A stretch of 20,203 bases of DNA from Pseudobacteriovorax sp. Its GTDB lineage: Bacteria; Bdellovibrionota_B; Oligoflexia; Oligoflexales; Oligoflexaceae. Shown piece after piece: positions 3-20,203 of this stretch; the first letter of the stretch is position 1, and each line of letters begins with the position of its first letter. The notes beneath the pieces are model-generated. The model worked only from the letters and a program-made list of their open reading frames with translations. It was not told the origin of the DNA and did not search any database. A program made the translations under genes and the position numbers. Location of the stretch: the NCBI GenBank assembly GCA_050293845.1, contig JBNKNM010000091.1, forward strand, positions 1-20,203. The letters are read 5' to 3'.

Positions 3-377
3 TATTTTCTAGATTGTTTTCGCAAATTCAAGGAATTAATAAGTCAAAAATCCAAATTTGTTTTCTGGACGTCTATAACAAACAGCTGGCAGTTGATCCT
101 CATTGCCAAGAAAAAAGGATTAACATATGATAAAATTAGAGCCTGGATTGACAAAAAGAATTTTCGCCCCATCAAAGCAGATTACATGACAAAAACAGGA
201 CGTAAAATTAAGCATGTTGAATTTATTAAATTTGACAATCTAGCTGGAGGCTTGCGACCATCAAAGATGGTGATCACCGATGCTACAGATAGTTCCAAAA
301 GCTCTATATTACGAATTGAAAAAATGTGGAAAACTTCCATTCCCTCGTCATTCTTTGTCACAGAGAACCTAAAATAG
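3..377 (+). CDS. Outer-membrane lipoprotein-sorting (LolA-like) protein, C-terminal part; 5' end outside window
   Basis: Frame is open from base 3 to TAG at 375-377. WQLILIAKKKGLTYDKIRAWIDKKNFRPIKADYMTKTGRKIK...RPSKMVITD...IPSSFF resembles the C-terminus of LolA-like sorting proteins. Directly upstream of an OM barrel gene, the usual arrangement. Confidence 0.7.
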   Translation, partial: YFLDCFRKFKELISQKSKFVFWTSITNSWQLILIAKKKGLTYDKIRAWIDKKNFRPIKADYMTKTGRKIKHVEFIKFDNLAGGLRPSKMVITDATDSSKSSILRIEKMWKTSIPSSFFVTENLK

Positions 378-1624
378 TGAAAACCTTAATTATAATCTGG
401 GGAATGTTATTTATCTCCAGTTGGGGCTTGTCACAGCATGAAGAATATCTTTCTCAAGTAACACATAAGTCAAAGCGTGAAATAGGATACTATAACGTTT
501 TTGATACTAGTGAAGGCTCCCAAAATGATGTCATCTATTATGAGGAAGATAGTCGTATCGTAAATAAAGCAGACTACAAAGCTTGGTCGCTACACTTTCG
601 TTTGCGACTACGATACGACTTTCGGGATCAAATGTCTGGTTTTTCACTATCCCATCATAACATTAGCCGCGAACTTCTATATGCATCAAAAAACTTTGAT
701 GATTCATCGTTAATTATTGGCTTACAAGAACTAACTTGGGGCGAGTCACTGATTTTTCCGATTATGGATATTGTTAATCCTAGAAATGTTCACTATCCGA
801 AAGGATTTTTGGACAGCGACTCAAAGATATCGGTACCAATGATAAACTTTGAAATTTATAGTGCTTGGGGCAACCTACAGCTACTTTATATTCCTATCAT
901 TCGTGCCACAGAGCTACCTGAGGAAATTGGTGATTATAGTGTTGAGAGGCAAAAATCTCCAGAGCTGCTTGATGATCAAGAGTTCGGTTTGCGCTATAAA
1001 TTTCCCTTTGATAGCTTAGACTTAAGGCTTTATGCACTCAGACATCGGAATCGGGAGCCTAGCTTTAGATTCAAACCATTCAGTGATGGCACTGACCTTA
1101 AAATTTCCCATAATGAACTCACAACCATTGGTTTAAGTGGCTCCATGGGAACTTTAACTCGGGTTTGGAAGCTCGATACCAGACATACCCCGGATCAAGT
1201 ATTATCCGGCATAGTAAGACGAACGGTAATCCGCAACCTGACACAAACTATGATCGGAATGGATCAAGCCATGGGCATCGATCATACCTTGGGGTTCGAG
1301 TTGCATTTTGATAACTGGGGACTGATGCCTGAAGCATACAACGACAGTGCTTTTGCGCAACCTAAAGATATTGATGGCAACCTAATATGGATGGGTGTCA
1401 ATCTACGCTTCAATCTCTTCAATCAAAAGCTGAAACCCCAAATTATTCATTTTCAAGGCATCAATAATCAAGATCGATTTAGTAGGATTAAAGTGACAAG
1501 TGAATTAGCTGATCGTCTTCAACTTACCATCGAGTATCAAGACGCCGAAGTCGACAGTTCCAGTCCCAAATTCATATTAAGCAAAGCAAAACGTATCCTT
1601 ACAGAAATTAAAATCTACCTTTAG
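377..1624 (+). CDS. Putative outer-membrane beta-barrel (DUF1302-like)
   Basis: Likely GTG start at 377 overlapping the upstream stop (ORF track starts at 326). Signal-peptide-like N-terminus, IGLQELTWGES...MDIVNPR motif, alternating beta-strand pattern, C-terminal EIKIYL. Confidence 0.65.
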   Translation: MKTLIIIWGMLFISSWGLSQHEEYLSQVTHKSKREIGYYNVFDTSEGSQNDVIYYEEDSRIVNKADYKAWSLHFRLRLRYDFRDQMSGFSLSHHNISRELLYASKNFDDSSLIIGLQELTWGESLIFPIMDIVNPRNVHYPKGFLDSDSKISVPMINFEIYSAWGNLQLLYIPIIRATELPEEIGDYSVERQKSPELLDDQEFGLRYKFPFDSLDLRLYALRHRNREPSFRFKPFSDGTDLKISHNELTTIGLSGSMGTLTRVWKLDTRHTPDQVLSGIVRRTVIRNLTQTMIGMDQAMGIDHTLGFELHFDNWGLMPEAYNDSAFAQPKDIDGNLIWMGVNLRFNLFNQKLKPQIIHFQGINNQDRFSRIKVTSELADRLQLTIEYQDAEVDSSSPKFILSKAKRILTEIKIYL

Positions 1625-1795
1625 GGCCTAATGCTGGCAAGAAGCCACTAGATAACCAGCTTAACATACTATATTTATTTAATAAGTTGAGAAATATGGC
1701 TTTTGACTGCCGGATTCACAAGCAATTTCAATTGCTAGTTTATTATATTTTCTCTGCATTTTCACACATATAACCAAACCTACCAAGAAAAAACT

Positions 1796-1811
1796 TGGCC
1801 TATCCTATGCA
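1796..1811 (+). promoter_or_regulatory. Candidate sigma54 (-24/-12) promoter of the cytochrome c/DUF1501 operon
   Basis: TGGCCT-ATCCT-ATGCA with exact GG-N10-GC spacing, about 35 nt before the start codon. Confidence 0.5.
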
Positions 1812-1844
1812 TATCCCAAAGCAACGACTAAAAAGGTGTTTACT

Positions 1845-3350
1845 ATGGTCTACCAATCAATGGTGGCAATTTTTCTCGTCATAAATGCTTGTACGGCCTA
1901 TGCAAAACCGCAAGGCCCCCATCTATTTTGTCAGGCAAATGCAGATTTTCCTTCCTGCGCAGGAACTGCGATAGCCTGCAATTATTGCCACTTATCGCAA
2001 CCTCCAGCCTTTAATCCTTTTGGAAAGTGTTTTCAGGCCACGCTCATTAATGAAGGTCTATTGTTCCCTTCTAGTAAAGAGGATATGTCGTCGGCTCTCA
2101 GTATGTTGGCAGCTCAAGATTGCGATGAAGATGGGATTAAAAATGAAGAAGAGATTCGTCGTGGCAGCCTCCCAGGAGATCCTAGCAGCCAGCCCAGCTC
2201 AAATCCTTGTATTAATGGGGGAACATTTGAGGATGATAGCGCTTATAAAACATGTAGCTACGATCAAGATTATGTTTACAAAAAAGTCTGGATTGATTTT
2301 TGCGGAGAATCACCCACCTTCGATGAGTACCACGAGTTCAAACAACTTTCCAGTCAGAATAAGACCTTGGAAATTGATCAGGTTTTGGATAAGTGCTTCG
2401 ACTCAGACCATTGGCTGGGAAAAGATGGTGTGATCTGGCAAATAGGGCACTACAAGATTAGACCAGTCGGCTCAGTCAAGCTTGGTGAGGACGAGGGATT
2501 GATTCCCATCGTCGATTACTATGCAGATTTCAACCTTTTTGTTTGGAGTCAAATCGATAATAACGATGCCCGCGACCAATTGTTAGCAGATTTCACTGTA
2601 ACAAGGTCTGGGGGCAAAGGAATACCAACACGCTATTCTCAACAAACACCGAGCAGACTACTGGATGGTCAAGTTATGCAAGAAGATCGTCGCGTTGGCC
2701 TTCTTACCACTTTTTGGAATTTAGGATTCTACTTGAATTATACAGCGGTAGCGCGCGTACTTGTGGCACAAGCTTTCAGAGCTTACCTCGGCATTAGTAT
2801 GTCCAAAATGCAAGGACTCAATCCTCCTCCCATAGAGGACAGCTTATTTCAGGATTATGATGCAAAAGGTGTCGACCGCCCTGAGTGTGCTGTTTGTCAC
2901 ACCACCATAGATCCTATTGCCTACCCTTTTCGTAATTACAATGGTTTAACAGGAACAAGTTCAGTCCTTCAGGGACAGAATGCTTCAGGGCTTTCAAGCG
3001 TATCTAATTTAGGTGACGAGGAAAACCTTACTCCCCTATCCTATTCACTACCTCGGCTTGAATTTTATGAAGATGTTATGCCTGGTATCTCAAAAATGCC
3101 TGAAGCTGGCTTTATTATGGGTAAGAGGGTGGAAAACCTTTACCAATGGGCGGAGATACTTGTTAACAGCGATCAGTTTGCTGCTAATTCTGTACGAGAT
3201 TATTGGAAAGTTCTTATCGGCTCAGACGTTAAGTCCTATCAGCAAAAAGAGTTTAAAAAGCTCTGGGAAAATTTTAAATCTGGTCACAGCTATTCTATTG
3301 AAGCGATGCTTCGTGAACTAGTTAAAACGGAGGCATACGGTGTACCTTAA
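1845..3350 (+). CDS. Exported protein with two c-type heme motifs (CNYCH, CAVCH); related to DUF1501-associated cytochrome-like proteins
   Basis: Signal peptide ending AYA|KP, two CxxCH motifs, acidic DCDEDGIKNEEE..G.LPGD loop, C-terminal AMLRELVKTEAY. ATG 1845 follows AAAAGG (ORF track uses GTG 1836). Confidence 0.7.
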   Translation: MVYQSMVAIFLVINACTAYAKPQGPHLFCQANADFPSCAGTAIACNYCHLSQPPAFNPFGKCFQATLINEGLLFPSSKEDMSSALSMLAAQDCDEDGIKNEEEIRRGSLPGDPSSQPSSNPCINGGTFEDDSAYKTCSYDQDYVYKKVWIDFCGESPTFDEYHEFKQLSSQNKTLEIDQVLDKCFDSDHWLGKDGVIWQIGHYKIRPVGSVKLGEDEGLIPIVDYYADFNLFVWSQIDNNDARDQLLADFTVTRSGGKGIPTRYSQQTPSRLLDGQVMQEDRRVGLLTTFWNLGFYLNYTAVARVLVAQAFRAYLGISMSKMQGLNPPPIEDSLFQDYDAKGVDRPECAVCHTTIDPIAYPFRNYNGLTGTSSVLQGQNASGLSSVSNLGDEENLTPLSYSLPRLEFYEDVMPGISKMPEAGFIMGKRVENLYQWAEILVNSDQFAANSVRDYWKVLIGSDVKSYQQKEFKKLWENFKSGHSYSIEAMLRELVKTEAYGVP

Positions 3351-3984
3351 GTTAACATTGCTTTTGAGCCTTTTACTGTATGGTTGCAATTTGAATAACT
3401 TTCAATCTAAGAAAAAGGAATCTTCGCCTGCAACATTCGATTCATCGAATGTTGCCAGGTCGCAAAAACTACAAGTAAAAAAGAAAAGAACCAATCAAAT
3501 TACGAGAAGTCTTTCTAAGATACTAGGAATGACTACGAATCAATTATGCCTCGAACTCGGTAAAATTCCGTGTGCGAACATAGTTCATAATGTAAGCCTA
3601 GGAGGCATGGATGCTTATTCTAATAGTCAGTATGAACTTGCCGAAAAAGATCCTATAACAGCTCCTATGGCTCTAGATCGATTAGTATTAGCTGCATGTT
3701 CCACCCGGGCATCCATTGATATTATTAATCCCAATCAAGGGGTTATCTTCAGAAATATCAAACTCACCGATGATGGTCGTCTAACGAGAAATGATGCTTT
3801 TTATAATTCCATAGACCGTCTATACCAAAGATCTTTTCTGAGAAACCCCAGTTTTGAAGAAGTTAAAGCTATGGAAAACCTTTATGTAGATATATACGAG
3901 GAAAACCCCATAGGAGCTGCTAGAAACTGGGCTGTATTAAGTTGTTATGTAGTGTTATCCAGCATCGAATTTATTTTTTACTAG
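3340..3984 (+). CDS. Lipoprotein of the cytochrome/DUF1501 cluster
   Basis: Lipobox LLYGC. IDRLYQRSFLRNPSFEEV and C-terminal VLSSIEFIFY resemble DUF1595/DUF1553-type helical segments. Overlaps the upstream gene by 11 nt. Confidence 0.65.
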   Translation: MYLKLTLLLSLLLYGCNLNNFQSKKKESSPATFDSSNVARSQKLQVKKKRTNQITRSLSKILGMTTNQLCLELGKIPCANIVHNVSLGGMDAYSNSQYELAEKDPITAPMALDRLVLAACSTRASIDIINPNQGVIFRNIKLTDDGRLTRNDAFYNSIDRLYQRSFLRNPSFEEVKAMENLYVDIYEENPIGAARNWAVLSCYVVLSSIEFIFY

Positions 3985-3994
3985 AGGAGCTTTA

Positions 3995-5530
3995 ATGAAA
4001 AAATCCTATAATCGTAGAGAATTAGTCACGCGTCTGAGCCTACTGGGCCTTAGCTCTCATATTTTGTTGCAAGGCTGCATTAAAAACGAAATGATCGATA
4101 AAAGATCAGGTTCGCAGCAAGGTTTTGGAGCCTTAGGCTATAAAAACGATCCCAAGTTTCTTTTTGTTTTTGGTGCCATGGGGGGAGCTTCCATAAACGA
4201 TAGTTTTCTAGCAGTTCGCCAGTCGGAGTCTGATTTTGCCAGTGAATTAAACACATTTCCTGATGATTGGGTTAAATCCATTGAAGGTACTCATTTGCGA
4301 GCTGTGGATCTTTCCATGAATGATATAGGTCCGCTGCCCTTTCCGGTAAGATCGAACCAGTCACTTTTTTTAGAAAAACATTTTCGTGACATCCTAGTTG
4401 CTACAGTAGAACACTCCACTGTTAGTCATCCTCTTGGCCAAAAAAGAATACTTACCGGAAATGATGCCTGGTTAGGACGAACATTACAGGAAGTTGTAGC
4501 CCTTGAATATGGGAGTGACATGGCTATTCCGAATGTAAATATGTCCTCTCTAGGTTTTGCCGAAGCCGGTTCCGATAGTAGTATTCAGAATGAAGCCGTA
4601 GCCGAAGTAATATCCAATCCAAACTTTTTTACTTTGGGTTTACACGGATATAAAGGAGTGCCTGGAGCTCCAGAAGGTCGTTTGGTGGATATTGCTAGGC
4701 GCTACCGTAAACAACTTGATAAAAATAGTGAATTTTATAAGACATTTAGCAATGCCGACAAAATTCAAGATTGGCTACTATTACGCCAAGAACGCCAAAA
4801 ACGTATTGAAACATTAAGCCTCATTGATAAACTGAATATGTTTGAAGAGACCAGCGATCTACCCTTTTCAGACTTTGGCTTGCATCCTAACCCCAGGGGT
4901 GATGCCATACGAGAAATGTTTCCTGACTTGGGTGCTGATCCATTACAAACTCAGGCAGCATTAGCTTATATGTTGATTAGTCAGGGTATTTCCACTACAG
5001 CTACCATCGGCCTCGGAATGAACGTTACCATAAATGGCAATGATGCTGACAACCCGCTTTTGACCAACACGCCAACAGGCTTCGATTACTCTCACAATGC
5101 TCATCGTGGTACTCAGGCTCTGCTTTGGAATCGATCATTGGATATTATTGATAGATTAATCACCCTTTTGCAGAGAACTGAGTATAAAAAAGGTGACAGT
5201 CTATGGGATCGTAGTTTAATTTTGATTGCTACTGAATTCGGTCGCGATAAATCTCGTCCTATGGATGCCGAAGAATTCACATCAGGACATAACCAAAATA
5301 ACGGCATCACTATAATTTCACCCATGGTTAATGGGGGTAGGATACTGGGTGGCGTTGACCCCAATACTCTTTTAACTTATGGTTTTAACCCAGAAACTGG
5401 AGCACCTGATCCTCAGCGTAAAATGACAGAAAAGGAGATTTTTTCTGGAATTCTCCAAGCAATAGGTATTGACACCAGCGAAGCAAAACTACCAGATATG
5501 AGCGCCATGAGAAAGAGGGGGGTGATATGA
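3995..5530 (+). CDS. DUF1501-like protein with twin-arginine signal
   Basis: RBS GAGGAG. YNRRELV Tat motif then LLQGC (possible lipobox). Motifs GAMGG, FDYSH, LIATEFGR, H..., GGRILG typical of DUF1501. Confidence 0.8.
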   Translation: MKKSYNRRELVTRLSLLGLSSHILLQGCIKNEMIDKRSGSQQGFGALGYKNDPKFLFVFGAMGGASINDSFLAVRQSESDFASELNTFPDDWVKSIEGTHLRAVDLSMNDIGPLPFPVRSNQSLFLEKHFRDILVATVEHSTVSHPLGQKRILTGNDAWLGRTLQEVVALEYGSDMAIPNVNMSSLGFAEAGSDSSIQNEAVAEVISNPNFFTLGLHGYKGVPGAPEGRLVDIARRYRKQLDKNSEFYKTFSNADKIQDWLLLRQERQKRIETLSLIDKLNMFEETSDLPFSDFGLHPNPRGDAIREMFPDLGADPLQTQAALAYMLISQGISTTATIGLGMNVTINGNDADNPLLTNTPTGFDYSHNAHRGTQALLWNRSLDIIDRLITLLQRTEYKKGDSLWDRSLILIATEFGRDKSRPMDAEEFTSGHNQNNGITIISPMVNGGRILGGVDPNTLLTYGFNPETGAPDPQRKMTEKEIFSGILQAIGIDTSEAKLPDMSAMRKRGVI

Positions 5531-6504
5531 GGATTCAAACATTTATTATATTCATTACATTTATAGTGTTTCTTACATCTTGTTCTACAATCGCTCAGTG
5601 GGCAGCACCTGCAAAAGCAAAAAAAGTATCACATGGAAAAGAATATAAGCAAGCTGAGAAAATTTTCTGGAATGCTTTCCATAGCGGACAATACCAAAAA
5701 ATTCCTTACTTACTTGAAATATACAAAAAGATTTATATTGAAAATCCAAATCACTACGAGGCAGCGGCACGCATCGGATTTCTTCACACTTGGGCGCTTT
5801 CTGAACGAAGGCGACTAAAAATAATATTACCCTCGATTATAGATAACGCCACTTTGTGCCAGAAGTATTTTAATGAAGCCTATCATATGAAAGCCGATCC
5901 ACGGTACTTAGGATTTTGGGCGTCATGTATTCTGGCAGAAGCTGAAATTCATGGTCAAGAGAGGGATCTTCGCAAAGGTTTTTTTCTCATGAAAGACGCT
6001 ATTTCAAAGTGGCCCGAATTTAATAACTTTACCGGAGGCTATGTCTTGAGTAACCAAGAGCATAGTAGTGAATTTCTAAACTTGGCGGTTGAATGGCAAT
6101 GGGACAATCTTGATGTTTGTACTGACGAGAAAGTAAATCGTAAAAACCCTGACTATGAGAAATATTTAGACCAGGAGGTCAAAAGAGGGCGCAAACGTGC
6201 CTGCTGGAATTCTAAGATCGCACCCCATAACTTCGAGGGTTTCTTCCTTAATATGGGGGACCTGTTGGTTAAAAATGGTGAACCGGAAAAGGCCAAAAAA
6301 ATTTATGCGAATGCGAAACTGTCGAAAAGCTACAGCGCGTGGCCATTTGCTAAAGTGTTAGAAGCAAGAATAGCGAATGCTAAGAAAAACGTGATTGAAT
6401 TTCGCAAAGAGTTTTCATCTGGAGAAATTCCCTCTCACCCCATTATGATGTTCAATACCAGTTACTCCTGCATGGCTTGTCATCAAAAAAAAGGTCCGGA
6501 ATAG
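5527..6504 (+). CDS. Helical lipoprotein with a C-terminal c-type heme motif (CMACH)
   Basis: ATGA overlap with the upstream stop, lipobox FLTSC, TPR-like helices (LNMGDLLVKNGEPEKAKKIYANA), CMACH near the C-terminus. Confidence 0.7.
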   Translation: MRIQTFIIFITFIVFLTSCSTIAQWAAPAKAKKVSHGKEYKQAEKIFWNAFHSGQYQKIPYLLEIYKKIYIENPNHYEAAARIGFLHTWALSERRRLKIILPSIIDNATLCQKYFNEAYHMKADPRYLGFWASCILAEAEIHGQERDLRKGFFLMKDAISKWPEFNNFTGGYVLSNQEHSSEFLNLAVEWQWDNLDVCTDEKVNRKNPDYEKYLDQEVKRGRKRACWNSKIAPHNFEGFFLNMGDLLVKNGEPEKAKKIYANAKLSKSYSAWPFAKVLEARIANAKKNVIEFRKEFSSGEIPSHPIMMFNTSYSCMACHQKKGPE

Positions 6505-13531: not shown

Positions 13532-13771
13532 ACGGAGCTCCGAAGTCTAACAAGTTCTGATATTGATTCCCTTCTCCCTTGGAGTTGGGAGGCTGATTCA
13601 TCACGTCTCAAAATCTCGTCCTCTGAAGATTATATCGAGCAGGATTATCCCATAGAGCTTCTGATCAAAAAGCTTGGTCTTGAAGAGAGGTTTATTTTGA
13701 TGAGTCATCTAGCTTTCCAGACCAATCGATCCAATCATCTGAAATGGCAGCATTATCTCCTTGATTTTTGA
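13532..13771 (+). pseudogene. Probable IS66 transposase C-terminal remnant
   Basis: Open frame TELRSLTSSDIDSLLPWSW... that begins after an upstream stop; IDxLLPWxW is the characteristic IS66 TnpC C-terminal motif. Confidence 0.45.
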
Positions 13772-13853
13772 AAATTCAATCAAATTTAGGCTAGGAATTA
13801 CTTGGCCATGGTGAGGTACGCTTTGCTATATTAGGTGGATCGGAGGGACACAG

Positions 13854-14379
13854 AATATCGACAAAGATGGCAATTTGGTTTGCGGTGGACTCTGTGTAAT
13901 GGGTCTAATAGGTGGAGGGCTGCTTTGGTGTCTGCTGGTAAAGAGTTGTGGGAAGACTACAAGCAAAACGATCAGATCACAGCCGGGGGTGCTGTCAAAG
14001 CATCAGTGTCAGGAGTAGTATCTGGCACTAAAGCCGTTGTGCATGCAGGTGCTTTCGCAGTGGGAGGAGTTGCCAGAACAGTTGCGGCAACGGGACTAAC
14101 GGCACCAATGACCTTTGTAGAAAGTGTCACTAAAGACGTTATCGATGGCAAAGAAGCAAATATGAGCAAAGCGTTGACTAAGACAGGGATTGGAGTGGTG
14201 TTGGGCCCTGCTTTAACCATCGTAGGTGGTGGTGGTCCTCTTGGAAGTAAGATCTCTCAAGAAACTGTCAAATCTGAATTTAAAACTTGACTAAGTCTGA
14301 AATTAAAGAGGTTTCAAAGATACTTAGTGAACAAGGGGCTAGAAAAACAGTTCTGGAAGAAGGAGGTACCAGTAGATGA
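13854..14379 (+). pseudogene. Frameshifted Rhs/polymorphic toxin C-terminal remnant
   Basis: NIDKDGNLVCGGLCVMGLIGG from 13854, shift near 13915-13920 into the 13835-14290 ORF (AALVSAGKE...), second shift near 14282-14287 into LTKSEIKEVSKILSEQGARK...TGA at 14377-14379. DxDG followed by Gly/Ala-rich helices is typical of the Rhs core/tip junction. Confidence 0.55.
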
Positions 14380-14504
14380 ATTTGTAATCGATGATAAAGT
14401 CGATGAAAGGTACTCGGATTGAACTTCTTTTTAGTGACGATAATAACTTATCTAACTTGAATTAGTTTTGACCTAATCTGCTATGTGATTTGTTAATCAT
14501 TCTG

Positions 14505-14690
14505 CACGAGTACAATTGCCCTACAATCTGCTATTCGAGGTCGCGATCGTGATCGCGCCTAAAGTTTCTTTTTCGTATCCAATTGATTGGCACCCCTAAC
14601 TGACACCCGTGGTACTCAAAAAGCTCACTGATTAGGTCACGAGGTTACCAAAGAACCGATGTTATCGTTTTGCAACTTGTATTCATATAA
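14505..14690 (-). ncRNA. Predicted bridge RNA/seekRNA of the IS110 element (ends approximate)
   Basis: Two internal loops, each with two guide segments matching the empty target site and the circle junction, flanked by complementary stems (see findings). Confidence 0.8.
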
Positions 14691-14708
14691 AAATATTTTT
14701 AAACTTCG

Positions 14709-15773
14709 TTAAACACCTGCTAGACCTTCCTTATTGATAACATAGAAAGTGTTTTGCTTTAAGCAGCTTCTAATTCTACCTATCAGCTTTCTTGCAATAG
14801 CAACGATTGCCCGATTACCGCCTCTTCTAATTGAAATATTTTCATACATTTTTTTAAGAGACGGATCGTCTCTGATTGCACGCCACGCTGCTTCCACCAT
14901 CAAGTTCCTTAGCCGAGGAGGACCTTGACGGCTTATGTTTCCTCTACGAACTTTGTCACCTGATGAATATTCACAGGGCGTAAGCCCAGTATAGCTAAAT
15001 AGTTGTTTTTCATTTTTGAATCTAGACATATTACCAAGTTCAGCTATTAGGTATTGGCTCGAAATTTCACCGATACCTGGTACGCTTCTGTAGATTGGTT
15101 CTATATTCGATTTTTTAGCAGCGGATCGTATTCTCCTACGAATGCTAAACAATTTTCTTGTCAGAAAAATCCAGTTATCGAAAAGCAAATCCATGCTGAA
15201 TACTATTTCATCTGGTAAATTTCTTAATCTAGTCTTCAACTCTTTAATATACTTGATCGAGATTTTTCTCGTTTCGCAGCATTCAATTTTTCCGAGATAA
15301 GTAAGCTTTGATTTTATCTGATTTGCTACCTTTGCTCTTTGCTTAGAAATTTGCTCACGAGTTCTAAGAAGTATTCTATGGGCTTCCTGGAGTTCATTCG
15401 GAACGTAAATAGGTCTGAGTCTGTTATAGTAGAGTTCCATAGCTAGCTTCACAGCATCTTTCTTATCTGTTTTTACTCTGTTGTTCGCTTCGATATTTAT
15501 TGATGCGGGATTTACAACAATACTGCTAAATCCCGCATTCTTGAGCATTCTGTGCAAACCAAAACCGCAAAATCCAGCTTCATACACTGTTCGCACTTCG
15601 TTCGCTTCGTTAAAGTTTTTTTTGATATAGTTGGTTAGGTTACTTGGCTTTGCTTCCATACTAAATTTACGCGCAACAGTTCCTTCAAGGACTACGGCCA
15701 CTACATAGTTTCGTTTATGAACATCGACTCCGATAAAAATTGTATGCCCAGTATAGTCAGTATTTGTTCTCAT
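14709..15773 (-). CDS. IS110-family DEDD transposase/recombinase
   Basis: GVDVHK, YEAG, KTDKKDA (DEDD), SVPGIG, YTGLTP.EYSSG (catalytic Ser region), AIVAIARKL; RBS AAGGAG. Confidence 0.96.
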   Translation of the reverse strand: MRTNTDYTGHTIFIGVDVHKRNYVVAVVLEGTVARKFSMEAKPSNLTNYIKKNFNEANEVRTVYEAGFCGFGLHRMLKNAGFSSIVVNPASINIEANNRVKTDKKDAVKLAMELYYNRLRPIYVPNELQEAHRILLRTREQISKQRAKVANQIKSKLTYLGKIECCETRKISIKYIKELKTRLRNLPDEIVFSMDLLFDNWIFLTRKLFSIRRRIRSAAKKSNIEPIYRSVPGIGEISSQYLIAELGNMSRFKNEKQLFSYTGLTPCEYSSGDKVRRGNISRQGPPRLRNLMVEAAWRAIRDDPSLKKMYENISIRRGGNRAIVAIARKLIGRIRSCLKQNTFYVINKEGLAGV

Positions 15774-15885
15774 TGCGTAGCTCCTTATAATAAAGTTGCT
15801 CCACTAAAAGAGATAACAACTTTTTCTCCAAGGTTTCCACACAAATCAACATAGAAACTGACAAAACCCTCAAAAATAGAGCGCT

Positions 15886-15963
15886 GAACAAAGCACGAAT
15901 CACAGAAGATAAAGAAAATATAATTCCTCTTTCCGTCCAAGTTGATACCGAACAAATCACGAA
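15886..15963 (+). repeat. 14-bp direct repeat pair, candidate integrase arm-type sites
   Basis: GAACAAAGCACGAA (15886-15899) and GAACAAATCACGAA (15950-15963), one mismatch, within about 200 bp of the att core. Confidence 0.45.
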
Positions 15964-16086
15964 CAGTCCAGCCAGAAACACCCGGAAAATGACGGAAACA
16001 GAGGAACAATCTTGAAGCAGCTAAGTTGTTAAATTACTTATCTAAAACACTGAAATTACTATAACTTTCTGTAATTACTTCTAAAA

Positions 16087-16107
16087 TTCGATTCCCGCCG
16101 CCTCCAC
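16087..16107 (+). other. att core: duplicated 3' end of tmRNA (ssrA)
   Basis: TTCGATTCCCGCCGCCTCCAC matches the T-loop/acceptor 3' end typical of tmRNA. The 5' half of the T stem is absent, so this is a fragment. It lies about 150 bp from the integrase stop. Confidence 0.8.
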
Positions 16108-16253
16108 TGGTATAACCAGTGGATATCATTAATAAAAATTGACTGCATTATTCAGAACCCTTGCTTTTTCCATGCTACCCAATTTTTATTAATAATAACA
16201 GCGAGTTAAATTAATACATTTATGTAGCTTCTACTTCCTATCCCTTACTAGGT

Positions 16254-17339
16254 TTAGTCCCAGGACATTGTTTCGACTCTAGATTGATCGTGATGATGAT
16301 ATTTAGACATGGTCGTTTTAATATCGCTATGACCCAATATTTTATAAAGCATGTAAATATCCCCTCCCCTTTTCATATACCAAGTTGCGAATGTATGCCT
16401 TAATCCATGATATGTGATTCGAGGTAGTTCCAGTCTTGAGACCCATTTTTGAAATACTTCATTCGATAATTTCGAAGGCGCAATTGGCTTACCAGTTCTA
16501 GTGTTAAATAGACCTGGTAAATGGGAGTCAACTCTGACCTTTTCCTCCAGCCACTGATGAAGTCGACTTCTTCGTTTAAAACGTAGTAGACGCGACTCAT
16601 AGTTCTTAGTGGGTTCAACCTGCTTTGACTTCTCGTTATAAGTCTTAATGACAGATATAGTACAGTCACTAAAATCGATATCCGATTTAAGTAAAGCTGT
16701 CACTTCTCCAAGTCTCATTCCCGTTTCAAGGGGGAGAATTAGTGCAGCCCTATATGGTTCGAAATTACCTTTTCCGTCCACTCTAGCTTTTTGTAATTCA
16801 AGTCCTGAATAAAAGGTTTCAATATGGTTTTTAGTTTTCCACCAATTGTCATCACTCGTTTTAACAGTTTTAAGAGGTTTTATTTTGACAGGGTTTTCGC
16901 TTAAATAGCCCCATTCAACTGCCTTACTTAAAATTGAACTTAAAGTTGCAATACAGTTATTGATCGATTTAGGTTGTATTTTCCCAATTAGTTTACTCCT
17001 AAAAAACTCAATTCGCTTCGGAGTAATTGAATCTAGCTTCGAATACCCAAATTCTCTAGTCAACCGAAGATCGATATCAAGTCTATATCTCATTTGTGTG
17101 CGGCTCTTTAGTGTTGGTAAGTGAGCTGTACAGTACTCTCTTACTAATCTCTCCCAGCGAATTTCCTCATAGAAATAACTTGCTTTTGAATTACTTTTAT
17201 ACATTTCTAGATAAGCAATAGCGGCTCTTTGGGTTTCAAAACCTTCTTTATAAACAGGTTTTCCTGATACTTTTGTATTGACCTTATATCTAGTTCCTTT
17301 ATTTATCCGATACTTTGTAATTCCCTTTATTAAAGCCAT
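16254..17339 (-). CDS. int: Phage tyrosine integrase
   Basis: ETGMRLGE (Arg), PTK (Lys), YHGLRHTFAT (HxxR), LGHSDIKTTMSKY (His, Tyr); N-terminal arm-binding and SAM-like regions. Confidence 0.95.
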   Translation of the reverse strand: MALIKGITKYRINKGTRYKVNTKVSGKPVYKEGFETQRAAIAYLEMYKSNSKASYFYEEIRWERLVREYCTAHLPTLKSRTQMRYRLDIDLRLTREFGYSKLDSITPKRIEFFRSKLIGKIQPKSINNCIATLSSILSKAVEWGYLSENPVKIKPLKTVKTSDDNWWKTKNHIETFYSGLELQKARVDGKGNFEPYRAALILPLETGMRLGEVTALLKSDIDFSDCTISVIKTYNEKSKQVEPTKNYESRLLRFKRRSRLHQWLEEKVRVDSHLPGLFNTRTGKPIAPSKLSNEVFQKWVSRLELPRITYHGLRHTFATWYMKRGGDIYMLYKILGHSDIKTTMSKYHHHDQSRVETMSWD

Positions 17340-19204: not shown

Positions 19205-19459
19205 ATGGGAAAAGTAAGGCTTATTAACTTCTTAGATACTGCCTCAATTATCGATCGTCTTGAGCTTGAAGCAAGGAAAGCCGGTATGAACTTGGAGGAA
19301 TTATGGGGTCGTATCAAATTAGATACCCGAACTATGAATACATGGCGAACGGGACAGCATACACCTAGCCTTAGTAGTTTACAACATATTCAGTCGGTAA
19401 TTAACGACTATATACGCGAAAAAAATTCAAATGGGGAGTTGGTATATGATAACAAATAG
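19205..19459 (+). CDS. Cro/XRE-type helix-turn-helix protein
   Basis: RBS AAGGAG; GMNLEELWGRIKLDTRTMNTWRTGQHTPSLSSL is an XRE HTH signature. Confidence 0.85.
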   Translation: MGKVRLINFLDTASIIDRLELEARKAGMNLEELWGRIKLDTRTMNTWRTGQHTPSLSSLQHIQSVINDYIREKNSNGELVYDNK

Positions 19460-20203
19460 ATGGTATGGCCCCGTAGATTATATGCTTTATCATGAAAAAA
19501 TGGCTGAATATCACCGTAAATGGTGGTGGCTGAGTAAGTCTGTCATTGATTTGATTCTGTCGTCACCAAGACATTTTCAATACAAATTCTTGAATCCTAA
19601 AAGCTATCGAGTATCAGAGTCAAAAAGTCAATCAAGGGGTACAGATGTTCATACAATGCTTCTTGAACTTTCCATTTTTAAGTCTCGCTATCTTTGTGGC
19701 CCAGAGGGTAAGAATCGTAATCATGTACCCTTTAAAAACATGGTTATGGAAAACCCTGACAATATGGTCCTTCCTTTTACCGAATATAAGATGTTAGAGG
19801 CTATTTACGATTCCGTGTTTCAACAAAAGCTTGGTCGCTACTTTCTCCAACTTGAAGGCAGTCCGGAAGTATCTTGTTATTGGATCGATCCAGAATTTAA
19901 TCAGCCCTTAAAGTGTCGTCCCGATAAACTTATTGAAACTGAAAAGATCGTTGTAGACATTAAGACCACCTCTATCCTAGGGAAATTCAAGTTTGAGCGT
20001 CATGCTTCAGATCTAAACTATCATCGCTCTGCTGCCTTAACCTTGCGTGGTCTTAAGTTACTTACTGGCAATGATTATACGTACATATTTCTCGTAGTTG
20101 AAACAAAACCACCCTTCAATGTGGCTTGCTATTCATACTGCGAAGACGATATTGCCACCGGTAATTTGGAAATTGATAAAGCTATAAAAAAATACCAAGA
20201 GTG
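19446..20203 (+). CDS. RecE/exonuclease VIII-like PD-(D/E)XK nuclease (DUF3799-like), 3' truncated by window
   Basis: Not in the ORF track because it has no stop. My translation from ATG 19446 (RBS GGGGAG): MITNRWYG...EYH...LSKS...SPRHF...GTDVHTMLLE...EVSCYW...KCRPDKL...VVDIKTT...YHRSAA...FLVVETKPPF. Confidence 0.9.
   Translation, partial: MITNRWYGPVDYMLYHEKMAEYHRKWWWLSKSVIDLILSSPRHFQYKFLNPKSYRVSESKSQSRGTDVHTMLLELSIFKSRYLCGPEGKNRNHVPFKNMVMENPDNMVLPFTEYKMLEAIYDSVFQQKLGRYFLQLEGSPEVSCYWIDPEFNQPLKCRPDKLIETEKIVVDIKTTSILGKFKFERHASDLNYHRSAALTLRGLKLLTGNDYTYIFLVVETKPPFNVACYSYCEDDIATGNLEIDKAIKKYQE

Follow-up and report, generated by a model that had tools for sequence, protein, structure and literature searches.

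The locus raises two questions: does the non-coding DNA downstream of its IS110-family transposase encode an RNA that directs the insertion of the element, and at which dinucleotide would the strands be exchanged? The preliminary description, made from the letters alone, had answered the first with a target-loop/donor-loop bridge RNA and the second with an AA/TT core differing from the CT core of IS621. In the window, i.e., the whole stretch of 20,203 nucleotides that was analysed, we read positions 14478-15857 (minus strand) as an intact insertion sequence (IS) of the IS1111 group with a DEDD/serine recombinase, a bridge RNA of approximately 139 nt and a CT core, and we give this reading a probability of close to nine in ten. 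The first answer of the preliminary description is upheld by our data, the second is not. The features on which the reading is based are collected in Table 1.

Table 1. Positions of the insertion sequence, its predicted bridge RNA and its target halves in the window, with the basis for each assignment.
Feature	Position	Strand	Basis
IS110-family, IS1111-group insertion sequence	14478..15857	-	1380 bp including one copy of the AG/CT core
Left half of target, TGTC (GTGTC in C172 and C288)	15860..15863	-	flank comparison
Putative core AG (CT on the plus strand), left-junction copy	15858..15859	-	AG before the left terminus in 12/12 families
Left subterminal inverted repeat	15841..15855	-	complementary to 14493-14481 with one extra base; direct reading
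Transposase / predicted bridge recombinase, 354 aa	14709..15773	-	PF01548 E 1.3e-18, PF02371 E 6.5e-26
Predicted bridge RNA (long seekRNA), ~139 nt, target-binding loop then donor-binding loop	14513..14651	-	MFE fold, 14-homologue consensus
Predicted guide 1, 5' side of target loop: UGACCUAAU + core-binding C-A	14629..14639	-	pairs with the transposase-sense strand of the right flank
Predicted guide 2, 3' side of target loop: GUGUC + AG core + UU handshake	14598..14606	-	left-flank matches, covariation
Predicted guide 3, 5' side of donor loop: AGAAA + CU core	14563..14569	-	7-nt match; pairs with the IS left end
Predicted guide 4, 3' side of donor loop: AUAGC + AG core + A(UU) handshake	14525..14534	-	10-nt match; identical to the IS right end
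Right subterminal inverted repeat	14480..14493	-	direct reading
Putative core AG, right-junction copy	14478..14479	-	AG after ..ATAG(C/T) in 12/13 families; GG in L017
Right half of target, ATTAGGTCA	14469..14477	-	flank comparison, C393 paralogue

The bounds of the element were obtained by comparing the window copy with four fragments of the same genome, all at contig ends, of which two hold a left end (C172, C288) and two a right end (C138, C264). Inside the element these are 97-100% identical to the window copy, and outside it their flanks diverge; the termini are also homologous to those of 13 related IS families. The genome has at least three near-identical copies of the element. It is likewise present on assembled contigs from three other public runs, and a fourth right flank occurs in two of the four public runs examined (X1 and X6, from different studies). 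Among the public runs listed as containing the element there is none of RNA. The element reads as a member of the IS1111 group because of its subterminal inverted repeats and because the non-coding end downstream of tnp, on the right (231 nt, 14708-14478), is far longer than the left one (84 nt, 15857-15774), as is expected in this group. The inverted repeats (15855-15841 versus 14493-14480, approximately 13/14 complementary) are inset from the ends, lie in the range of 7-17 bp that characterises IS1111 elements, and are kept in the homologues. Insertion is sequence-specific and is accompanied by no target duplication beyond the core, AG alone being common to both junctions, which is a further property of the group.

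The transposase combines the DEDD (RuvC-like) N-terminal domain with the PF02371 C-terminal domain, as do the proteins of IS110 and IS1111 elements. Residues D17, E65, D103, D106, S270 and G272 are invariant in all 14 aligned transposases (that of the window and 13 relatives), and S271 is conserved in at least 90%. The motif GLTPCEYSSG (G263-L264-T-P266-C-E-Y-S-S271-G272) has the form GL-P----S(t)G with the catalytic serine, which is the motif given for IS1111-type transposases by Siddiquee et al. (2024, PMC11187229), and it aligns to GLTPRRYESG of ISCro4. By sequence, the relatives with a solved structure are the transposases of ISCro4 (9t56) and IS621 (8wt6) only, and of both the C-terminal domain alone aligns. 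ISCro4 is the best such match (residues 226-307, including the GLTP..Y.SG catalytic loop, E 4.9e-11), with a confident alignment restricted to the C-terminal region and a comparison that concerns the protein alone; for IS621 the similarity is detectable in the C-terminal domain only (E 2.6e-10). The nearest transposases in species-representative genomes and plasmids are 42-46% identical. The closest among 5.8 billion proteins is at most 51% identical, which we interpret as an indication of a separate lineage. With an open frame, conserved DEDD residues and Ser-Gly motif, and several near-identical copies, the element looks intact, in accordance with what the preliminary description had supposed.

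The four strings which the preliminary description had taken for guides are present in the right non-coding end on the transposase strand (TGACCTAATC at 14639-14630, TGTCAGTTAGG at 14605-14595, AGAAACT at 14569-14563 and ATAGCAGATT at 14534-14525), and so are the enclosing stems and inner hairpins of both loops, in the sequence as well as in the MFE fold. The second string stands where it had been placed, but its AGG does not belong to the guide, being made up of an unpaired A and of bases in the first two pairs of the outer target stem, which covaries. The MFE fold of the 139-nt piece yields all four helices, namely the outer target stem (14651-14641 / 14596-14587, 10 bp), the inner target hairpin (14628-14609), the outer donor stem (14585-14575 / 14524-14513) and the inner donor hairpin (14560-14538). 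Folded as a single sequence, the region does not stand out by its energy (z = -0.73 for 236 nt and -1.07 for 139 nt). A scan of positions 14300-16100 against Rfam returned six matches; the models concerned are without exception eukaryotic snoRNAs or lncRNAs, and none of the matches comes near the gathering score (E 0.21-6.9).

Compared with the two observed junctions, guides 1 to 4 match over 10, 8, 7 and 10 nt, respectively. As a measure of chance, 2000 dinucleotide-preserving shuffles of the 209-nt non-coding region were compared with both observed junctions. A 10-nt match to the bottom strand of the right junction was reached by 5/2000 shuffles and a 10-nt match to its top strand by 12/2000, while 154/2000 reached the 8-nt match to the top strand of the left junction and 569/2000 the 7-nt match of guide 3 to its bottom strand, which alone is at chance level. 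The summed match of the four guides, 35 nt, was reached by none of the 2000 shuffles, whose maximum was 31. The four matches are jointly beyond chance; the 7-nt and 8-nt matches are weak if taken singly. Guides 2, 3 and 4 include the full core (AG, CU and AG), whereas guide 1 has C-A in place of the expected C-U, and its predicted pairing with the core is one base short (A for U). The sequence of guide 4 recurs at the right end of the element as a direct repeat. The target loop and the donor loop each hold predicted guides for both DNA strands. That the 3' non-coding region encodes, on the transposase strand, a two-loop bridge/seekRNA whose first loop holds the target guides and whose second loop holds the donor guides is supported by covariation in the structure and by covariation between guides and insertion sites in 12-13 homologous families, and the architecture proposed in the preliminary description is thus probably the correct one.

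The structural covariation was studied in homologues. Among 80 related loci collected, the 31 closest (L006-L036) all carry the conserved motif of guide 4 with the exception of L026, and the 30 motif-bearing loci collapse to 13 distinct RNA families besides that of the window, with transposases that are 42-46% identical. The labels of their records are Flavobacterium, Chitinophaga, several Chlamydiota, two Gammaproteobacteria and Verrucomicrobiales, by which the hosts of the homologues would fall into Chlamydiota, Bacteroidota, Gammaproteobacteria and Verrucomicrobiota. The motif is absent, bar one weak match, from the 49 distant loci L037-L085 (33-39% identity), which were excluded from the tests.

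RNAalifold recovers from the 14 aligned RNAs the target outer stem, the target inner hairpin and the donor inner hairpin (the latter counted as two helices in the pair count), and all four guide regions sit in unpaired loops of this consensus. Standard pairs occupy 94.8% of the 363 cells, and in 18 of the 26 base pairs both partners have changed. On each of the five measures of RNA structure all 500 shuffles stayed below the observed value, and pairing falls to 30-50% in a control in which the partners are slid by 1-3 columns. Many of the pairs are G-U in several homologous RNAs and are compatible with the transposase strand only, not with its complement. The homologues do not share the outer donor stem CAAUUG..UAC / GUA..CAAUUG of the window RNA; in them, the donor loop appears to be closed further downstream via an additional hairpin. 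This is in line with Durrant et al. (2024, PMC11208160), according to whom the donor-binding bases of many IS1111 orthologues are located in a multi-loop; the donor guides of the window RNA are, by contrast, located in a simple internal loop.

A bolder proposal would be that the window RNA and its 13 homologues constitute an uncatalogued bridge-RNA scaffold, without a match in Rfam, in which the window element is an unusually simple, IS621-like 3'-end form with two internal loops, a CT core and a deliberate A-for-U mispair in the core of guide 1, and with a recombinase of a lineage at most 51% identical to any that has been sampled. We regard this as unlikely. Supplementary Table 5 of Durrant et al. 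(2024), which contains predictions per ISfinder element, may already cover the clade. If the proposal were true, the core mispair of guide 1 might tune the balance between insertion and excision, and the element would represent a compact new orthologue for programmable recombination as well as a natural test case for the effects of core mismatches.

The guides of related elements covary with the sites into which these elements are inserted. For this comparison the guide letters were taken from fixed alignment columns and the flanks from beside the conserved termini; the ends of single-copy families were placed via the homology of the termini and not by comparison of copies. The six nucleotides of guide 2 before AG share 58.9/72 identities with the six nucleotides of the left flank in 12 families (permuted mean 21.75), a score attained in 0/20000 permutations. 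Similarly, the nine nucleotides of guide 1 share 73.31/117 identities with the reverse complement of the 9-nt right flank in 13 families, compared to a permuted mean of 35.83 and a permuted maximum of 63.31, so that here, too, 0/20000 permutations attained the observed score. Because many families of Chlamydiota share a GAT.. target, the test of guide 1 was rerun on the seven families with unrelated targets, in which the true pairing alone reaches the observed score (1/5040 orderings). Two loci were dropped from the guide tests, L024 (a right end followed by a partial internal copy) and L006 (the contig ends at the junction); L026, in which there is no RNA motif, was kept out of the right-flank test, and L006 and L021, whose contigs start inside the element, out of the left-flank test.

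Within the family of the window, guide 1 matches the three right flanks at 9/9 (the window itself), 8/9 and 7/9 positions, and guide 2 (GGUGUC) matches the left flank over four contiguous bases from the core in the window and over five in both C172 and C288. In several single-copy homologues guide 1 matches just 3-5 of the core-adjacent bases, which fits natural off-target insertion or drift and weakens those rows. The preliminary description had named copies that end at other positions, and guides that do not covary with insertion sites, as outcomes that would speak against the RNA; both were checked, and in both cases the outcome favours the RNA.

The position of the core is less evident from the window alone. 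On the transposase strand its junctions read ..TGTC-AG-TT-TCTATG.. and ..CATAGC-AG-ATT-AGGTCA, in which AG and TT are both repeated. The 'empty target' and 'donor' strings of the preliminary description were built on a chosen AA cut, and AG (CT on the plus strand) is repeated at both junctions as well. With a TT/AA core the same bridge RNA would belong to an element at 15855-14475 with the empty site TGTCAG-TT-AGGTCA, its circle of 1381 bp would have the junction ...CATAGCAGA-TT-TCTATG..., and handshake bases would follow guides 1 and 3. Such a core is attractive in that TT occurs at both junctions of the window copy and also in the C138 and C264 copies, that the match of guide 2 to the predicted empty site would extend over 11 contiguous bases, and that guide 4 would equal the right end plus the core without any extension. 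The AGG which gives guide 2 this additional length is, however, the very stretch assigned above to the unpaired A and the outer stem.

The related families argue for AG. The termini of the families are conserved as TT(G/T/A)CTATG ... ATAG(C/T), and junctions were counted in those families whose ends are on the contig, i.e., 12 left ends and 13 right ends. AG is the sole dinucleotide common to both junctions in all multi-copy families. In the chlamA family (seven usable copies) the right junction is without TT, and gammaA would need a different right end under a TT core. The guide regions agree with the junctions: that of guide 1 has, in 12/14 RNAs, a CT separated from the inner hairpin by no more than one spacer base, that of guide 2 reads N5-6-AG-TT in 13/14, and that of guide 4 reads AATAG(C/T)AG in 14/14, while guide 3 of the homologues ends in ..CT, and in ..CAACU where the left end is TTG.. 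instead of TTT... The conserved ends of the guides are CT and AG, not AA and TT, and we thus interpret them as constant core-binding bases.

Further evidence comes from the target. Three left flanks end with (G/T)TGTC-AG and four right flanks begin with AG-AT, three of which continue as ATTA(G/C)GTC. The sequence that is targeted is a repeat, in which a terminator-like hairpin and a T-run are followed by ..GAGGG(C/T)T(G/T)TGTC-AG-ATTAGGTC(A/G)... One uninterrupted but diverged copy of this repeat, C393, with T for G in the core, is found in the same genome. Up to position 56 it aligns with the occupied left flanks, its position 57 (T) stands opposite the core G, and the right flank of the window aligns from position 58 (base 14477), with no gap and no overlap. 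This is what an AG core predicts, whereas a TT core needs a deletion of one nucleotide. The fourth right flank, that of X1 and X6, reads ..ATAGC-AG-ATC.. and is likewise without TT.

The exact empty site, which the preliminary description had suggested looking for, was found neither in the genome nor in related genomes or metagenomes. The sequence TGTCAGTTAGGTC is absent from the genome, where seven matches with one mismatch lie in unrelated contexts, and a search with 3 kb around the element detected no orthologous uninterrupted locus in 41 genomes (G000 and 40 related ones). In 22 genomes of the family a degenerate pattern of the empty site is about as frequent as its reversed control, and of its matches C393 alone belongs to the target repeat. 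A scan of metagenomes with a degenerate pattern of 21-22 nt yielded two loci that are identical in sequence and lie in an unrelated, GC-rich context, and the contigs assembled from four public runs contain no excised site and no circle junction. Since no exact empty target was found, the core call rests on one diverged paralogue, the homologues and one extra junction.

Taken with these junctions and guide ends, the evidence favours AG on the transposase strand as the core, which corresponds to the CT core of IS621, and we consider a TT/AA core to be very unlikely. Under a TT/AA core the handshake bases would also follow the 5'-side guides, in contrast to IS621, in which, according to Hiraizumi et al. 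(2024, PMC11208158), the right target guide and the right donor guide are each followed on the 3' side by a handshake guide. With AG as the core, handshake-like bases are predicted after the AG of guides 2 (UU) and 4 (AUU), the 3'-side guides of the two loops, while the UC and CU after guides 1 and 3, for which the preliminary description had suggested a handshake role, are mostly the core itself. The first base after the AG of guide 4 equals the first base of the right flank in 12/13 families; the second and third bases agree with the flank in just 2/13 and 5/13. The families resemble IS621 in this regard, for which a single covarying handshake position has been reported, with the first base only.

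Least probable of all is that the guide-like strings are a dead relic, inherited from an ancestor or produced by an internal duplication of the right end, and directing nothing now, for which one could cite the core mismatch of guide 1, the absence of a promoter-like site in 14400-15950 and the repetition of the element's own end in guide 4, but against which stand the open reading frame with its conserved catalytic residues, at least three copies with 97-100% identity and different flanks, the fourth flank in other runs, and the matches of 9/9, 8/9 and 7/9 between guide and present insertion sites, which are not expected if targeting had decayed.

From the observed anatomy and conservation of the element, its multiple copies and the covariation of its RNA and of guides and sites, a mechanism of transposition may be proposed, for which RNA expression, protein binding, chemistry and programmability are extrapolated from the work on IS621 and ISEc11-type elements. 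Excision would give rise to a circle of 1380 bp, with ...CACATAGC-AG-TTTCTATG... at its junction, and precise excision would leave TGTC-AG-ATTAGGTC behind. The circle junction would join a -35-like box of the right end to a -10-like box of the left repeat with a 17-nt spacer, and the recombinase and the RNA would then be made from the circle. The -35-like TTAACA (14496-14491, TTGACA at this place in the homologues) overlaps the start of the right inverted repeat and the -10-like TATGTT (15853-15848) lies inside the left one, both identified by eye; the spacing would agree with the junction promoters that a review describes for the IS110 family. No sigma-70-like promoter was found in 14400-15950 (0 versus 4.2 expected), where the sigma-70 type may not be that of the host.

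The RNA would subsequently bridge the circle junction and a (G)TGTC-AG-ATTAGGTC site in the small repeat just downstream of the terminator-like hairpins. In the target loop, guide 1 (UGACCUAAU-C) would pair with one strand of the right target half and guide 2 (GUGUC-AG) with the other strand of the left half; in the donor loop, guide 3 (AGAAA-CU) would pair with the left end of the element and guide 4 (AUAGC-AG) with its right end. The bases that directly follow the core, UU in guide 2 and A in guide 4, would match the non-cognate partner in the manner of the handshake guides of IS621, and strand exchange at the core would insert the element without duplication of the target.

For 93.0% of IS1111 elements a bridge RNA has been predicted, located in the right end, and three IS1111 examples were decoded by hand (Durrant et al. 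2024, PMC11208160), and the function of seekRNAs was demonstrated for four IS1111 members (Siddiquee et al. 2024, PMC11187229). The window element shares with the IS1111 seekRNA elements ISEc11, ISPa11, ISKpn4 and ISPst6 the motif GL-P----SG, subterminal inverted repeats and a long non-coding region downstream of tnp, a likeness that is drawn from descriptions and not from direct sequence comparison. The order of the matches is also the same, the match that pairs with the top strand being located 5' of its bottom-strand counterpart, as is described together with the downstream non-coding region for IS1111 elements (Siddiquee et al. 2024, PMC11187229). All of these elements target a specific repeated sequence, although the target sequences differ. 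The window RNA of approximately 139 nt resembles the long forms of four IS1111 seekRNA elements, for which the table of a review gives 148-172 nt, and the transposase, with 354 aa, is slightly larger than the 330-350 aa quoted for the IS1111 group. As far as can be judged from the letters, the window element has every feature of IS1111 elements and bridge RNAs that we examined at the sequence level, except for one core base of guide 1.

With IS621 the element would have in common two internal loops with guides for either strand, all four of which reach the core, the CT core itself, a DEDD and serine recombinase, and, in either loop, handshake bases that follow the 3'-side guide on its 3' side. 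When the opposite strand is read, guide 1 takes the place of the left target guide of IS621, and the pairing covers 9 nt of the left target and 4-5 nt of the right target, as in IS621. The subterminal inverted repeats of the window element are, in contrast to IS621, long (13-14 bp). The RNA of IS621 is located in the left end, whereas the window RNA is located in the right end, downstream of tnp, and therefore the order of the guides and the strand of the core are reversed relative to tnp (AG on the tnp strand). Between the IS1111 and IS110 types the order of the matches is reversed according to Siddiquee et al. (2024, PMC11187229); reading the other strand gives the arrangement of IS621 and would therefore explain this reversal. 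In this clade, accordingly read, the core would be the same CT as that of IS621 seen from the other strand, which reconciles the reversed order of seekRNAs with the IS621 model.

The picture of bridge RNAs established in 2024 is unchanged by the window element. Its additions are modest, namely that covariation with the target is limited to the first handshake base, as for IS621, and that the target repeat adjoins terminator-like hairpins. In practical terms, it provides one more candidate orthologue with decoded guides for the screening of bridge recombinases. As a minor observation, made by eye only, three Cyclobacteriaceae families among the distant loci L037-L085 have junctions and non-coding regions that also fit an AG core.

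In L024, a homologous IS copy in a Chlamydiae MAG, the 3' end of the element is partly repeated in tandem. Immediately after its right end (..CACATAGC-AG) comes the element-internal sequence that is normally located 3' of guide 4, a donor guide. The right end shares ~9 identical nt with the guide-4 DNA inside the element, and the repeat looks as if these two sites had recombined with each other.

The junctions of L017, a copy in a Gammaproteobacteria MAG, have AG as the core dinucleotide at the left but GG at the right (..CACATAGC-GG-GTACGG..), and the two core copies of this element are therefore unequal. Guide 1, the target guide pairing with the right flank, matches that flank at 8/9 positions. 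This difference might have arisen if the element inserted at a target whose core was mismatched.

Tandem target motifs adjoin the insertion in two further homologues, with two copies of GGGTTAGGGAGA in the right flank of L011 and three copies of CCCTAAAGGCAT in the left flank of the more distant L082. Both elements lie within arrays of their own target repeats.

Other features of the window are listed in the table. To the right of the IS, a 150-nt segment at the start of an ORF has further copies on two other contigs of the same genome (86-89% identity) and is a repeated gene or element. A tRNA 3'-end-like sequence (T-arm and acceptor, ..TTCGATTCCCGCCGCCTCCA..) is located between the IS and a phage-type tyrosine integrase gene; the distance from the end of this gene to the left end of the IS is ~390 bp. 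ARAGORN found no whole tRNA in the window, and the tRNA-like sequence beside the integrase has the appearance of an att remnant bordering an integrated element.

Coordinates of the features discussed
Feature	Sequence	Position	Strand
Five successive ORFs (214-511 aa), no Pfam match at E <= 0.001	window	326-6504	+
Repeated segment	window	13700-13851	
Copy of segment	C322	385-536	
Copy of segment	C447	370-522	
ORF	window	13835-14290	
tRNA 3'-end-like sequence	window	~16095-16135	+
Tyrosine integrase (PF00589, PF14659)	window	16254-17339	-
DUF3799 PDDEXK-like gene	window	19431-20201	
Partial tandem repeat	L024	~3039-3560
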